DNA of 64,000 bases from a virus (Duplodnaviria; Caudoviricetes), in the IMG/VR virus record IMGVR_UViG_3300026442_000101. One strand, given 5' to 3'. The translations under genes were made by a program, and so were the position numbers. The notes beneath the pieces are model-generated. The model worked only from the letters and a program-made list of their open reading frames with translations. It did not search any database and had not been told where the DNA came from. How positions within the stretch are numbered: the first letter of the stretch is position 1; each line of letters opens with the position of its first letter. Below, piece by piece: positions 29,463 to 60,239 of this stretch.

Positions 29463-31343
29463 TTACAACTGTGCCATTGCCAGAATGAACGCCTCTTTGC
29501 GGGCGGCAAACGGCAGCACTTCTACCAGACGGTTGTCAGACGTCGACAACAGCAGCCGGCCTTTCTGAGGAGCTGGCAAGACCTCGTCCAGGCGGCTGTA
29601 CAGTTTCCGGATCTCGAGGAACAGCGCGTTGTTCGCCGATGGCTCGATCACCAGACCTTCTTTGGATTCCAGCAGTTGCAGACCCAGGCCGATGTCGTCC
29701 AGGGTGTGGTCTACCGAAATGATTGCAGCGAAGTCGATGAAGACTGCTGCGTTGACGTTGGTTGCTTCGCCAATCAGGTCGCCAGCCAGCGCGGCCAGAT
29801 CTTCTTTGACGATGTGACAGCAGGCGATGTCGGAAACGAAGTGCATGCGCTTGGCGAATGCAGCTGCTTCTTCAGCGCCACGACGATCACGGAACGCCGC
29901 CAGCAACTTGCCGTAGCTGGTCGCGAAGTTCAGCTTGGCGATGTCGAACTGGAACTGGTAGGTGGAAGCACGAATGGTGTTGACCGAGAACCGGCGGTTC
30001 AGGTTTTCCCACAGCGGCTTCTCGAACTCCGGCTTGAGCTTCATCAACAGATCAGAAGCTTCGGTCAGAGTGGCCGCAGCATGCACCTGGTTGATCAGAT
30101 CCAGCTGGCTCTCGTCACGCAGCAGCACCGGCGTACGCAGGATGTGCAGGTCGATACGAGGCTGACCTTCGTCGCTTACCATCTTCACTTGGCTTTCGAA
30201 CACGGCGCCCTGGATGCTGTCGATGGTATCGGCTTTACCCAGGGTCATTTGTTCTTCAGGGATTTCGCGCAGGATCTCGGCCAGGCGCACAGTCTTGCTA
30301 CGTTGTTCGATACGGCTGTTGGTTACGCCGTCTTCACGGTTGGCCAGGCTGATACCTGCGGACAGGGTACGTGGCTTGGCATCGGGTTCACGGGTTTCTT
30401 CACGCAGGCTGTGGGCCATGTGGCGGTTGTCGTCGTTCACTTCTACGAGCTCCTCGCGGACTTCGCCGCGTTCATTCATGACGTAATACTTGATGTGGGT
30501 ATTGACGTCATAGACCGTTGGGATGGTGGAAAGGATGTCTTCGCCATTACCAGTCAGCTTCCACTTGGTAACGCTGGCAGCTTGGTAATGGTACTCGCCT
30601 ACCCAGTAATCGTCGTACGGGTTGGCTTTAGTGTAGTCAGGACCCTGGATGACAAAGCCTGGATCCTCACGGCGCGGGGCCTGTTCGGTGTGGTGATATT
30701 CAGGACGCTCTTCACGAGCTGTACGTTCTTCACGTTCAGGCTCGCGACGATCATCATCCTCACGACGATCGTCGTCATTGTGGCCGGTATCGGCTAACCA
30801 ATGAGCACTGTCGTCGGAACCGCGATCGCGGCCTCGCGATCCGCCAGACCGTCGATCATCTCGGCGACTATCACGAGAATCACGACGATCATCACGATCA
30901 CGACCGCGGCCACGATAGTCCCGATCATCATTCTCGCGTGAGCGTTCGCGGCGAGACCCTTCCACCATTTCTTGAGCATCGGCACGGGCGTCCTTCATCT
31001 CGTTGTAAATGGCGTCACTCAGATCCCGTGATACACGACTATCGCTAAGCACCAGCTCAGCGAAATGACCATCGACGACGATCTCAACCGTCTTGTCGAT
31101 GATATCGGCTTCACTATCACCGCGATCGCCGTACTTACGATCAACACGATCGTAGGCTCCGACGATGCCATCTACCAGTTCATTGAAGTTTCGGTTTTCC
31201 CAACGACGATCGCTGAGTTGGTCTGCGTAGCTACGACGCAGATCCAACATCAAGTCGTCGCGGATATCCCGGGATTTCGCCTGTGCGTTGATGTAGCGAA
31301 TCGCTGCATCAGCACAATCGTCCCAGAAACGATCTCCACTCAT
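29463..31343 (-). CDS. Conserved jumbo-phage protein with long R/D-rich low-complexity segment
   Basis: 626 aa directly downstream of nvRNAP beta-N; residues about 130-215 are RD/RS/RG-rich. Confidence 0.65.
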   Translation of the reverse strand: MSGDRFWDDCADAAIRYINAQAKSRDIRDDLMLDLRRSYADQLSDRRWENRNFNELVDGIVGAYDRVDRKYGDRGDSEADIIDKTVEIVVDGHFAELVLSDSRVSRDLSDAIYNEMKDARADAQEMVEGSRRERSRENDDRDYRGRGRDRDDRRDSRDSRRDDRRSGGSRGRDRGSDDSAHWLADTGHNDDDRREDDDRREPEREERTAREERPEYHHTEQAPRREDPGFVIQGPDYTKANPYDDYWVGEYHYQAASVTKWKLTGNGEDILSTIPTVYDVNTHIKYYVMNERGEVREELVEVNDDNRHMAHSLREETREPDAKPRTLSAGISLANREDGVTNSRIEQRSKTVRLAEILREIPEEQMTLGKADTIDSIQGAVFESQVKMVSDEGQPRIDLHILRTPVLLRDESQLDLINQVHAAATLTEASDLLMKLKPEFEKPLWENLNRRFSVNTIRASTYQFQFDIAKLNFATSYGKLLAAFRDRRGAEEAAAFAKRMHFVSDIACCHIVKEDLAALAGDLIGEATNVNAAVFIDFAAIISVDHTLDDIGLGLQLLESKEGLVIEPSANNALFLEIRKLYSRLDEVLPAPQKGRLLLSTSDNRLVEVLPFAARKEAFILAMAQL

Positions 31344-31375
31344 TTAATACACACTCCTGTATTGCGCGGGATTTG

Positions 31376-54620: not shown

Positions 54621-55242
54621 TCAAGGATCAGAAAGGCAACTACCCGACAATGGATACCTGGGGAGGAGATGCGCGGCTGCTACGCGCTCCATCGTCGTTA
54701 GGTCGACCAAGACTTTTGTCGCCCTTATCTCCGTTTCAGTGAGGTCAATACCCACCCATCAGATCGCCTATAATAGACGTGCACATCCATTACAAGCATC
54801 TGAAGGCTGCGTACTACGAGCCGCGTTGGTCGGCAGTCCATTTCCGTCTTTTACGATCATCGCTTCAGCCCACTGGACTGCGGGTCGAACCCGGAGCAGC
54901 GGTCCACTAGACCGACGGAGCGTGACGGCGTACCACGATTAACTGCCAAGCGCGAACATCGTGCAACAACTTGAGTACTCCTTGAAGCGTTGGCGTGCTT
55001 AACGAGTCCCCCGTACCCTTCGAAACTCTAATCACCGGCCAGGGGTCAGAGAGTCTCTCATATACTCCAATAGTCCAGGGTGAGGTTATTGGAGATGCCC
55101 TAAGGCATATCAAACACAAGAGTGTTTCACGCCATGTTTAACGTCTTGCGATCATCAGTGATAAGACGATCAGAGGACCAGCTGCCTTAGACAGTCAGGC
55201 GGCCAGCGAGGGAGTCCGGGATGCGCGGCTGGTCCTCTGATA
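54620..55242 (-). ncRNA. Large structured ncRNA candidate A (about 620 nt; strand tentative)
   Basis: No credible ORF; at least nine stems seen by eye; 12-nt direct repeat at 54668 and 55220. Confidence 0.55.
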
Positions 55243-55263: not shown

Positions 55264-55971
55264 TTATTCACGGATAGTTCGCACCATGTACTCGTTGGTC
55301 ATCTTGATGACGTTACCTAACTTAGTAGCCGCGTTGATGCGCTGGCAGAACTCTTTGAGGATCGGTCCACCGGACTGGGATTTACAGTTGAAGGTCAGTT
55401 GGATCATGCCGGCGAAGATACGGACTTCGATAAGCGGCACCGGCAGCAGGGTGGCTTGGATCACCTTGCCGTCGATATCGGTACGATATAGCACGTAATG
55501 GTAATCGAGATCACGAGTGCTATCAAGTACGACTTGGTTGATGCCGTAGAGGGCTTGCCGTATCGCATCACGATCGGCAGTGTCGGTGTCGTTAAACACT
55601 ACGCTGATACTTCCGCCAGTATCCTCACCACCAACCGAGACTACCTGCATACGCAGCAGGGCGTTAATGACATCACGATTGGCTTTGAGGTGATCCATGC
55701 TCGAGTCGAACTGTAACGCAGTGATCGCTAAGCTCGTGTCCACGCGGCGTGGTACGTTCTGTTCCTTGATGACGATCTCGACTTTACTGCCATCAAGGCT
55801 AGTCCAGTTACGGATATCCTCGCCAACGAGGTTGCGCTCTGCACGCAGATCCTCGCTGGTGATCTTAACCTCGTGACCGTACTCCTGCATCAGAGCACGC
55901 TCGATGATTGCCATGACGTGACTTTTACCGACGCCGGTCGAACCTTTAACGATGACTTCGAGCTTTTCCAT
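55264..55971 (-). CDS. Hypothetical protein with N-terminal P-loop-like motif
   Basis: VIVKGSTGVGKSHV; no clear Walker B. Confidence 0.6.
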   Translation of the reverse strand: MEKLEVIVKGSTGVGKSHVMAIIERALMQEYGHEVKITSEDLRAERNLVGEDIRNWTSLDGSKVEIVIKEQNVPRRVDTSLAITALQFDSSMDHLKANRDVINALLRMQVVSVGGEDTGGSISVVFNDTDTADRDAIRQALYGINQVVLDSTRDLDYHYVLYRTDIDGKVIQATLLPVPLIEVRIFAGMIQLTFNCKSQSGGPILKEFCQRINAATKLGNVIKMTNEYMVRTIRE

Positions 55972-56341: not shown

Positions 56342-56394
56342 GACGACCTCCGTTTATTCATTACATAGCCGTCATTGTTAAATGTATACGAACG

Positions 56395-56660
56395 GCATAA
56401 AGACCCGGCCGAAGCCGGGCATCTTGATCTTCATGTTGCCCGTCGTTGTACATGCGCATCCGGCTAGAGGCAGCGAACCGCCCGATAGGTTTCAGCTACA
56501 AGCATTGATAGGCGCGTTCAGCCTCAGGAAGAACGCTAAGGGGTGGCGTTGCCGCCATTGGGGTTCCATTCCTCAGGGAGCTGGACGAAACGGACGTCCT
56601 TACTGTGAGTTCAAGATCTAAATTGTGAAAGAGCTCAGAGAACAACTTGTGAGGGCATTC
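56395..56660 (-). ncRNA. Structured ncRNA candidate B (about 250 nt) with UUCG terminator hairpin
   Basis: Minus-strand GCAA and UUCG tetraloop hairpins; closing stem atcttga/tcaagat. Confidence 0.55.
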
Positions 56661-56698
56661 TCTACATAGTATATTGACATCATCCGTAAGTATTCACG

Positions 56699-56748: not shown

Positions 56749-57072
56749 TCAGTCTTTGCGACGTCTGAAGGATGTGATTGCTTTCTTGATGTAGGAGAGG
56801 TTCTTGATCTCGGAATACGGGACCGAGTTCTGCCGACAGAAATCTCTGTAGGCGATCAACTCCTCCATCTTCGAAAGCTGCACGTAGTGACTGATCTCAC
56901 CATCGGGTAGATAGTGGCGGATATAGATCATGTCGTCCTTGTGCTTACTTGGGTCAGCAGCTTCCCAGATGAGTCGCTCCTTACCGTGGATCGTATCTAC
57001 GAAGAGGTGGACGACAGTGCCGTCCTCATCCCCGTAGTGATCCTGACTGTGCTTGATGTACGGCTGTGTCAC
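56749..57072 (-). CDS. Hypothetical protein
   Basis: 107 aa, GTG start overlapping upstream stop. Confidence 0.55.
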   Translation of the reverse strand: MTQPYIKHSQDHYGDEDGTVVHLFVDTIHGKERLIWEAADPSKHKDDMIYIRHYLPDGEISHYVQLSKMEELIAYRDFCRQNSVPYSEIKNLSYIKKAITSFRRRKD

Positions 57073-57374
57073 GTAACTACCTCGTAGACTTTGTTGTACA
57101 GATCACGGATCTCCTTGAGGACCCGATCGCGATCACCTTTGTAGTCATGCGAGATGATTGTCTGCATGAGCCACGCTTCTGCCGCAGTGAGCTTGCGCTC
57201 GATATCTGCGATCTTCTCCAGGATCTTCTTGTGAAGAAACTCGATCTCCTCATCGATCTTCTTCTTATCCGCCTCGGTCCGAGGAGTTGGTTTGTATCGC
57301 TGGTAAGCTGCGTAACCTCCACCAGTGATCACGCCAGCTGCTATCAGAGCGGCTACTAACTTTGCTGCGTTCAC
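57069..57374 (-). CDS. Membrane-anchored coiled-coil protein
   Basis: GGAGGT RBS with GTG start; AALIAAGVITGGGYAAYQ. Confidence 0.6.
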   Translation of the reverse strand: MNAAKLVAALIAAGVITGGGYAAYQRYKPTPRTEADKKKIDEEIEFLHKKILEKIADIERKLTAAEAWLMQTIISHDYKGDRDRVLKEIRDLYNKVYEVVT

Positions 57375-57383
57375 GGTTACCTC

Positions 57384-57722
57384 CTAGCCTACATTAGGCA
57401 TGACGATAAGTTTGATGACCTTCAGCTGATCCTGGATGCTCTCCAGTTCGGTAGGCGACAATTTGTCGAGTTCGCCCGTGGTGCTCTGGACAGTCAGCTT
57501 AGCAAGGAAATCTACCTGGACATCGCTCAGCAAACCGCTGCCATTCAGGTTGACGAACAGGCTGATCATCTGAAGATCCACAATGATCGAAGTGACTTTC
57601 ATCTTGGCGAGAGTTCTGTCTTCGCTTTCCTTTGTAGCTTTGATGGACTTGTAGGCTGCGTAACCCAGACCACCAACGATTGCACCCAGAGCAGCGATAC
57701 GGACGATATTACCAAAGTTCAT
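57384..57722 (-). CDS. Membrane-anchored protein
   Basis: GAGGAGGT RBS; IAALGAIVGGLGYAAYK. Confidence 0.65.
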   Translation of the reverse strand: MNFGNIVRIAALGAIVGGLGYAAYKSIKATKESEDRTLAKMKVTSIIVDLQMISLFVNLNGSGLLSDVQVDFLAKLTVQSTTGELDKLSPTELESIQDQLKVIKLIVMPNVG

Positions 57723-57787: not shown

Positions 57788-57836
57788 GCGGCATATACCC
57801 CACCACCGGCGGAGCGACCGGTGGTGGGGATCTATG
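57788..57836 (-). terminator. Hairpin closing ncRNA candidate C
   Basis: ccccaccaccggc-ggagc-gaccggtggtgggg with gcata/tatg flanks. Confidence 0.75.
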
Positions 57837-57844
57837 TTGGTTCA

Positions 57845-58060
57845 CACTTGGGGCTGAGTGGTCACCCCACAGAGTTCGGCTTGTCCTCACGACGCTGAAC
57901 TCTGCAGGCTGTGCACTCTAGGCACTAGCTAGACTCCGACGGACCCGCGACCGTCGTAGCCTAAGGTCGGAGAGGACTCCCGACCACGGTGATCCAACGA
58001 TGGGAGTGTGCACACCGTTGGATTAAACTGAATCCATTCGCCCGAAATAATTCAGTCTAA
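57845..58060 (-). ncRNA. Six-hairpin ncRNA candidate C (strand tentative)
   Basis: Adjacent stems at 57849-57869, 57870-57904, 57919-57963, 57965-57985, 57992-58023 and 58027-58056. Confidence 0.55.
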
Positions 58061-58078
58061 CATATAATACATCACATG

Positions 58079-58495
58079 TCACCAGTTGAACATCTTACTC
58101 CTCTCCGATGCATTAGCCTCGACAGTGTATTCGTCGAAAGGCTTGGCATTTGCGTATGCACGTTTAGCTGTAGGGAGGAACCCTGCGGCTTTGTATGCGC
58201 GGATGCTTGAAGCATTCTTCGGTTCGATCCAGGCTCTCATGCGCTTACCTTGACGAAATGCGCGAATGAAGTCTGCTGCCACACCTTTACCCCGATATTC
58301 GGGGAGGATGTAAATAGAGCCTGTCCGCCAGTAGCCGTCCGGCTCTTGGAATGGTACAGAGAATCCCACGACCTTCCCCTCGAAGTACAAGGGTTCGATA
58401 TTTTCCATGTGGTTCTTAAGTGCGGCAGGGCCTAAGAATGGATCCTTCAAGGCTTTGTCCACGAGCGCTTTAAGCTCAGGTGTTATAGTCGCCAT
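58079..58495 (-). CDS. GNAT-family acetyltransferase
   Basis: IYILPEYRGKGVA (acetyl-CoA loop) and NASSIRAYKAAGF. Confidence 0.85.
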   Translation of the reverse strand: MATITPELKALVDKALKDPFLGPAALKNHMENIEPLYFEGKVVGFSVPFQEPDGYWRTGSIYILPEYRGKGVAADFIRAFRQGKRMRAWIEPKNASSIRAYKAAGFLPTAKRAYANAKPFDEYTVEANASERSKMFNW

Positions 58496-58599: not shown

Positions 58600-58926
58600 T
58601 TACTTGATCACGCTAAGAGTCGGTGGGTGCGAACTCTTTCGGAACCATGCTGTCCACGCCGCTTTGAAGGACGGAAATCGGTCCTTGGTTACCTTACGGC
58701 CAAAGCGGTCAGTCAGCACATAACCAGCATCATCCAGTTGGTTGAGCAACCAGGCGACACCATGACTCGCGCCAGCATTATAAATGTTCACTTCTTCTGG
58801 CGTGTCGATGATTTCGGTGATGTTATCGCCGACGTCTGCGATCTTACCTCGGAAGCCGTGAACAAGCGCAGCCGCAGACTCTGCTCGGTAAGCGTCCCAC
58901 ATGAGTTCTTCAAGCGGAGATTTCAT
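58600..58926 (-). CDS. Hypothetical protein
   Basis: 108 aa; TGATG overlap with upstream gene. Confidence 0.55.
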   Translation of the reverse strand: MKSPLEELMWDAYRAESAAALVHGFRGKIADVGDNITEIIDTPEEVNIYNAGASHGVAWLLNQLDDAGYVLTDRFGRKVTKDRFPSFKAAWTAWFRKSSHPPTLSVIK

Positions 58927-60239
58927 CAGTCTTCCTCAGAATCGACTTGATCAGTGGTGGTCAGATGGGTTAGCCAGCGGCAAAGATTGTGCTGCACATC
59001 TTCGTCACTCAACTGACTGGTCAGACGACCGGTCATACACATCGGAATGCTGATGGTCGGCATCAGGCCGCGATCGATCAGGTGGACATTCATCACCCCA
59101 TGTCGAGTACAGTTCACCGATACGCCAGTGATGTATTCGGCGAACTCGCAGATTGCGTTACGCATCTCTTCCATGAGACGCTCCATGACCTTCTGTGCGA
59201 TCTCATCACCGTAAGGGACGCCGATGGTATCCATCAAGGTGGTGAAATGCGGGATGAAAGTCGCGCCGTTATACACGACGTTGAGCGTGTCGAGGTTGAG
59301 TTCGGACATCGTCGACAGAGTCGCGCGGTAGATGCGGTTGAGGATGTGTCGATATTCCGGATCCGAAGCTTCGATAGTTTCATCGAACGACTTCACGATG
59401 ATCTCCGGCCCGAAGGTGGTTGGGATGCCACTGAAAATCCTGACCAACTCACCGAACGTAACGTAACCGTCCGAAGCGAACTGCGTATCGCGACTGAGCC
59501 TGTCGAGGAACATGACGTGACTGAGTGGTCGAGTTTCCGTCGCGTAACTCATCTGCTCCAAGGTATCATGAGGAGCTGCGTCGAGGTCGAACTCTTTCGC
59601 AACACCGTCGTATGCCCGCAGGATCTCGTCCAGCCATTCTCTCGAAGACTCGGTGAGTACCGGCACCAGTCGCACCGTAGTCGGAACGCCAGTCAGGTTG
59701 AGTGCAGGGCTACCTATCCGAGTGTGTGCTCCTAACACCGCCTCGGAGATCGTACGGTTGATGAGGTCGCCCGGACGAAGGCTGTAGAGTCTCTCATCGA
59801 TGCGATGAGTCGGCGGGACGACGTGGTCATCAGTGATCGTCTGCACGAGAGGACCATGCGGTGTGTTGAGCTGACGATAGGTAGTCACGCGGTCGAAGTA
59901 CAGCTTGGCATCGTGATCGACCAACCCACCCATGCTGACGACACTGGCGTCTTCAGTGAAGCCCGTAACGACAGCAGTCTGCTTACCGAACCCTGGACCA
60001 CCGACATTGCTCTCCATGGTCAGGGTGAACGCGTAGCGCGGTTGATCGTTGCCGCCCGGGATGGTGACTTCCCGCCCGTCGCGCAATGAGATCGACAGAG
60101 CGTCGTCGATCAGTTCGTCACGTTGGATATGACAACGCATACCTGGAGTGAGAATCGGATAAGCGACCAGCTTTGGAACTGGGCTCAGCTGGCGGAAGTT
60201 GATGGAGACAGCATCGTAGGTTTCGATCTGAATATGCAT
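58926..60239 (-). CDS. Divergent homologue of nvRNAP promoter-specificity (sigma-like) subunit, phiKZ gp68 family
   Basis: Motif order V.IP.G...R..F.L / GFT / D....YF / LRP.D / W.L..IL.AY matches my recollection of gp68-family proteins; needs a profile search. Confidence 0.55.
   Translation of the reverse strand: MHIQIETYDAVSINFRQLSPVPKLVAYPILTPGMRCHIQRDELIDDALSISLRDGREVTIPGGNDQPRYAFTLTMESNVGGPGFGKQTAVVTGFTEDASVVSMGGLVDHDAKLYFDRVTTYRQLNTPHGPLVQTITDDHVVPPTHRIDERLYSLRPGDLINRTISEAVLGAHTRIGSPALNLTGVPTTVRLVPVLTESSREWLDEILRAYDGVAKEFDLDAAPHDTLEQMSYATETRPLSHVMFLDRLSRDTQFASDGYVTFGELVRIFSGIPTTFGPEIIVKSFDETIEASDPEYRHILNRIYRATLSTMSELNLDTLNVVYNGATFIPHFTTLMDTIGVPYGDEIAQKVMERLMEEMRNAICEFAEYITGVSVNCTRHGVMNVHLIDRGLMPTISIPMCMTGRLTSQLSDEDVQHNLCRWLTHLTTTDQVDSEED

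Follow-up and report, generated by a model that had tools for sequence, protein, structure and literature searches.

The RNA C locus

The window is the entire 64,000-nt stretch of viral DNA that was analyzed (IMG/VR record IMGVR_UViG_3300026442_000101). PHROG matches to a major head protein, a DnaB-like helicase, a polymerase family, and virion proteins identify it as DNA of a phiKZ-like jumbo phage, and 246-kb metagenome contigs carry identical copies. The locus adjoins virion genes and lies among accessory genes, including a gene for a GNAT acetyltransferase. Between this GNAT gene, which lies on the minus strand and stops at 58079, and a 112-aa gene that starts at 57722 is a gap occupied by a stretch that we call RNA C, which the original prediction had put forward as a structured noncoding RNA. 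The elements of the locus are as follows.

58079..58495, minus strand: GNAT acetyltransferase gene, the upstream neighbor (PHROG acetyltransferase)
58061..58064, minus strand: TATG, a phiKZ-type late promoter core whose last G is the predicted start, at the 5' edge of 11/11 distinct homologs
57788..58061, minus strand: gene for RNA C, spanning about 274 nt between the predicted +1 G and the predicted terminator end
57788..57839, minus strand: phiKZ-type terminator, a 12-bp hairpin (57798-57829) and then TATGCC (motif match, PMC10914365)
57384..57722, minus strand: 112-aa gene, a nonconstant downstream neighbor that differs among lineages

The genes around RNA C vary among relatives in several respects. 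Longer GNAT forms of 264 to 444 aa, doubled or fused, were found at L164:2188-2994, L170:373-1185, L171:5001-5795, L173:799-2133, and L174:613-1455 (L numbers denote related loci), and in these long forms the final Trp codon beside RNA C is often kept. A 437-aa phrog_3141 gene (window 58926-60239, minus strand) is present at the locus in L002, L171, and L232 and missing from it in L164, L165, and L175. The adjoining small genes at window 57069-57374 and 57384-57722 (minus strand) have similar hydrophobic N termini and possibly encode paralogous membrane proteins.

RNA C is conserved across a clade of uncultured phages

Syntenic loci were located through GNAT and neighboring proteins (L002, L164, L165, L004, L170, L171, L173, L174, L175, and L232). 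In three close relatives, the RNA C body is 94 to 96% identical to that of the window while the surrounding genes are 62 to 89% identical, and no other segment of the locus, including every neighboring gene, is conserved as well. A first covariance model, built from four close sequences alone, matched L173 (192 bits), L004 (120 bits), and L174 (85 bits), as well as L171, L170, and L175 (27 to 29 bits; E of about 1e-7 or better), each match sitting in the expected gap of its locus. A second model found L232, which was outside its training set, at 61 bits. In total, 8 uncultured lineages yielded 11 distinct sequences; these lineages are kin, and counts across them do not represent independent events.

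Beyond these lineages, the covariance models, run with no positive control, found no RNA C in five cultured jumbo phages (FLC9, RP31, Noxifer, DT01, and pEa_SNUABM_37) or in four IMG/VR relatives with a different gene order. The closest cultured GNAT is that of Burkholderia phage FLC9, in which no gap follows the GNAT gene. No homolog was recovered from GTDB, blastn against cultured phages gave no match to RNA C, and DNA-pattern scans of IMG/VR returned chance loci only, with no score from the models at the loci screened. The window had no match in Rfam 15 at the gathering threshold, and weak thresholds applied to the window and six homolog loci gave only chance matches, with no ribozyme among them. 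No description of RNA C was found in the literature, and the main text of 2026 preprints on noncoding RNA mining makes no mention of jumbo phages. Judged from sequence comparison, RNA C is an uncatalogued RNA family confined to a single clade of uncultured phiKZ-like soil phages.

The RNA C stretch (278 nt) folds with z scores of −5.95 on the plus strand and −6.05 on the minus strand, and 0/200 shuffles folded as well. It contains no conserved ORF, large or small. Structural conservation was checked as a possible refutation of the candidate; the structure is strongly conserved among the homologs, so the candidate stands, and RNA C is almost certainly a genuine gene for a conserved structured RNA. 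We assigned it to the minus strand because in the minus reading G-U pairs (77) far exceed A-C pairs (6). This bias rejects the plus-strand reading, and the tmRNA-like 5' letters of the plus strand are a coincidence.

Covarying stems, a kissing contact, and a knotted 3' domain

In an alignment of ten sequences, 96% of cells were paired and double (compensatory) changes occurred in 57/65 pairs; slid controls gave 29 to 42%. The alignment was fitted to the stems and is hence biased toward them. L232 was added to the comparison by hand placement. The stems, in transcript order, are as follows.

58024..58059, minus strand: H1, a hairpin with a conserved purine-rich loop (91% paired, double changes in 13/14 pairs; reduced in L170)
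57992..58023, minus strand: H2, an 11-bp stem (double changes in 10/11 pairs)
57965..57985, minus strand: H3, a hairpin whose loop bases 57972-57977 form half of a kissing contact
57930..57963, minus strand: H4, a hairpin with a G-rich loop (double changes in 11/12 pairs)
57908..57929, minus strand: H4b, a 7-bp stem (90% paired across homologs)
57867..57907, minus strand: H5, a stem of fixed length and freely varying sequence, whose loop bases 57883-57888 form the other half of the kissing contact
57849..57866, minus strand: predicted sixth hairpin, unsupported across homologs

The original prediction had six stems tiling the region, followed by a terminator. Back-to-back stems do run over 57849-58059 and the terminator is where it was expected, as a recognizable phiKZ motif. 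The stem at 57849-57866 was rejected (80% paired across homologs, no better than shuffles), and an additional stem at 57908-57929 is supported.

Loops 3 and 5 are complementary over 6 to 7 nt in every lineage, with letters that differ between lineages. On columns that had not been fitted to the contact, 96.5% of the cells were paired, with double changes in 4/6 pairs. Loop pairs from the same lineage had an energy of −14.8, compared to −10.5 for swapped pairs (a mean cost of about 4 kcal/mol), and by exact permutation (P = 0.0002) the contact was the strongest among 36 segment pairs. It recurs in L232, which was absent from model training.

A second contact links the end of the H4b loop (57915-57918) to the tail (57856-57859), with 95% pairing and double changes in 3/4 pairs. 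H4b together with this loop-tail pairing has H-type pseudoknot geometry. Because nested folding favors a single long H5 over H4b plus the loop-tail pairing, a two-state switch with the longer H5 is also possible. In most lineages loop 1 could pair with the tail, as could loop 4 with the H2-H3 linker, but neither pairing shows double changes. A signal between loop 1 and loop 4b (P = 0.0006) was set aside, as the pairing is absent in the lineage of the window and the registers differ; a palindromic GUGCAC contact was not conserved (P = 0.78). Comparison of the homologs shows that purifying selection on the minus strand maintains five to six stems, the kissing contact, and a 3' domain that is knotted or switchable.

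These contacts replace the beads-on-a-string layout that had been envisaged for RNA C, and they also argue against a precursor cut into separate hairpins, as the loop-loop contact requires hairpins that are joined or bound. We consider it very improbable that RNA C is a precursor of small RNAs or a ribozyme of a new class. The presence of several pseudoknots would suit such a role, but the unpaired bases hold few invariant positions across the 8 lineages, which argues against a ribozyme, and the weak-threshold Rfam searches of the window and homolog loci described above gave no ribozyme match.

Transcription of RNA C

In phiKZ, the late promoter core is TATG, the G of which is +1, and the motif is short, common, and insufficient on its own to define a promoter (PMC4666361). 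By its letters, RNA C has the makeup of a phiKZ-type late unit, with TATG at +1 and a hairpin-TTATG terminator. A hairpin with a TATGCC tail also ends other genes in the window, and a terminator of the same type follows all of the RNA C homologs inspected. From the biology of phiKZ, the nonvirion RNA polymerase of the phage would start RNA C late in infection at TATG and stop at the terminator hairpin; transcripts reading through from the GNAT operon would carry RNA C as well.

That read-through bears on whether RNA C could instead act in cis, as a 3' UTR that stabilizes or regulates the upstream operon or as a switch on the terminator before the downstream genes. GNAT lies directly upstream in 6/8 lineages, no terminator separates its stop codon from RNA C in the window, and the 3' domain has two alternative pairings. 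However, the gene immediately upstream in L171 and L232 is a 168-aa gene other than GNAT, the downstream gene varies between lineages, and TATG is invariant at the 5' edge of RNA C. Further, neither alternative fold invades the terminator, and a conserved promoter-like block comes after it. A cis-acting role is thus highly doubtful, and a 3' UTR specific to GNAT, as the original prediction had allowed, is unlikely. TATG and the terminator stay constant in the homologs inspected, whereas the genes on either side vary; this favors a stand-alone late RNA over a GNAT 3' UTR, and we regard RNA C as probably its own transcript.

Neighboring structured RNAs and a module in common

Two further structured RNAs, A and B, lie near RNA C. 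RNA B (window 56390-56670, minus strand) is also a conserved family, with a TATG start, AGUAAG and CUCCCU motifs, and a terminator of the same type. It was found in every lineage whose contig covers that part of the locus (L173:3680-3960, L171:8545-8790, L232:15145-15375, and L175:3225-3470). RNA B and RNA C showed no covarying pairing with each other. The 3' segment of RNA A (window 54745-54835, minus strand; L173:5722-5796) repeats the H5-base module, namely AGCC, a long stem, and GGRUG, and the RNA C model matches RNA A at L173:5722-5796 with an E value of 7e-4. This match suggests that the module common to RNA A and RNA C reflects shared descent or a shared ligand. Because RNA A is missing from its position in L171 (10190-10279) and L232 (17067-17142), where the gap is <90 nt and B and C remain, the trio is not obligatory at the locus.

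The recurrence of the module, in which AGCC lies opposite GGRUG with a G-purine mismatch, suggests a common binding site, as would be expected of a protein decoy or scaffold whose fold offers a phage or host protein, for instance an RNA-sensing defense factor, motifs such as the H5-base internal loop. The place of RNA C among accessory genes with GNAT would agree with such a role. Yet the module may reflect shared descent alone, RNA C has no repeated motif of the CsrB or ToxI decoy kind, and it has no constant protein neighbor. A nearby gene, at L171:9192-10190 and L232:16057-17067 (the position of window 55264-55971), bears the index label Acb2/Tad1 hairpin, a label that Pfam did not return for the L171 protein. 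We consider a decoy or scaffold unlikely.

A conserved anti-Shine-Dalgarno-like loop

Loop L2 of H2 (58003-58012) ends in CUCC, an anti-Shine-Dalgarno-like motif. L2 varies in sequence, yet CUCC or CCUC is kept in 8/8 lineages. It is the only loop of RNA C left without a partner, as no covarying internal partner was found for it. The ribosome binding sites of window genes are GGAG or GAGG, the complement of the L2 motif. The best match among 41 ribosome binding sites was the following.

31347..31357, minus strand: candidate target, the ribosome binding site of a 626-aa gene (29463-31343), with 11 nt complementary to L2

The next best site matched over 8 nt. The match was found post hoc and has a P value of 0.025 to 0.034 when scored by run length and of about 0.2 when scored by duplex energy. 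The relative L236, in which the gene is 84% identical, has an identical site; because the whole leader is conserved there, this conservation is not specific to the site. In two phages without RNA C, the site differs. The 626-aa gene (minus strand) follows a gene with the PHROG label "polymerase" and had no PHROG, PDB, or Atlas match; weak relatives in DT01 and two IMG/VR phages were the only ones found.

Small RNAs that cover ribosome binding sites are known to be marked by C-rich loops (PMC4615179). By analogy, the kissing and pseudoknot contacts of RNA C may form a rigid, nuclease-resistant body that displays the free C-rich loop L2, which would pair with the Shine-Dalgarno sites of chosen mRNAs and block their translation late in infection. 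We tentatively propose anti-Shine-Dalgarno pairing, with translation blocked from a knotted scaffold, as the main job of RNA C, while holding that it is well short of probable. Known sRNAs of this kind are simple hairpin chains that need no pseudoknots, and the ornate fold of RNA C points equally to a structural RNA. A fuller version, in which a jumbo phage of the nucleus-forming type controls the timing of its translation through a trans-acting late RNA with several knots, the one free loop of this RNA coevolves with the site of the 626-aa gene, and the RNA belongs to a cassette of two to three late structured RNAs sharing a module, is quite improbable. If RNA C does repress translation through L2, RNA-based control would be added to what phiKZ-like phages use.

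As a structural RNA, RNA C would form dimers or rings through intermolecular pairing of loops 3 and 5 and serve in virion assembly, DNA packaging, or the phage nucleus. Stems that drift freely in sequence but keep their length, together with a loop-loop pair that covaries, make up the pattern of pRNA, and in ROOL and GOLLD the kissing loops that covary turned out to pair between molecules (10.1101/2024.12.08.627333). The late-type promoter and the adjacent virion genes are in line with such a function. Against it, covariation is blind to whether pairing is intra- or intermolecular, RNA C is far shorter than ROOL and GOLLD, and the window has no tRNA. RNA C is also unlikely to be a core packaging part because it is missing from the searched cultured phages and relatives (searched with no positive control). 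We judge oligomerization to be rather unlikely overall, though it is the main rival to anti-Shine-Dalgarno pairing, ahead of a protein decoy; if RNA C does form rings, it would be a small counterpart to pRNA, ROOL, and GOLLD.

Comparison with known RNA systems

Almost no noncoding RNAs have been characterized in lytic jumbo phages. The sRNAs of phiKZ and 201phi2-1 (PMC11512511, PMC10914365) come from the same phage group and share its grammar of promoters and terminators but, unlike RNA C, are <250 nt, mostly derived from 5' UTRs, and located at other loci (gp182/gp277).

Several familiar classes were set aside. As had been predicted, the loops are not repeated and ANGGA is scarce (0 to 1 per homolog, the single one in the window being used in the kissing contact), which leaves no basis for a CsrB/RsmZ-type CsrA sponge. 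A CRISPR array or ToxI-type repeat RNA, the former already thought unlikely, was rejected in that RNA C contains no direct-repeat family. ARAGORN identified 0 tRNA or tmRNA genes in the window.

Like RNA C, the phi29 pRNA is short and of late type, and in both the stems are conserved, the sequence varies, and complementary loops covary as a pair. In contrast to pRNA, RNA C consists of hairpins in a row, has no three-way junction in its predicted structure, and lacks an Rfam match. To our knowledge, the use of a pRNA is not known in phiKZ-like phages. ROOL and GOLLD are likewise phage encoded, with covarying kissing loops and pseudoknots (10.1101/2024.12.08.627333). They are 650 to 800+ nt long, whereas RNA C, at about 270 nt, falls below 500 nt, has no sequence or model match to them, and does not lie beside tRNAs.

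Adjacent hairpins, drifting stems, and a conserved anti-Shine-Dalgarno loop are shared with the cuckoo family (RSs0680), the Staphylococcus aureus RNAIII-type UCCC sRNAs, and 6C RNA (PMC4615179, PMC6486639). The L2 loop is predicted to be accessible in 8/8 lineages. RNA C differs from these sRNAs in having one free CUCC loop rather than a long C-rich motif in each hairpin loop, the motif being shorter and the other loops different, and in being phage encoded, with a kissing loop, a pseudoknot, and no Rfam match. On the features tested, RNA C is not a member of the cuckoo, CsrB, ROOL, GOLLD, pRNA, or tmRNA families. Its fold is well supported, its predicted ends are clear, and variants occur in nature, so it is suited to immediate in vitro work, and on present evidence it appears, by analogy, to resemble a C-rich-loop sRNA or a small ornate phage RNA.
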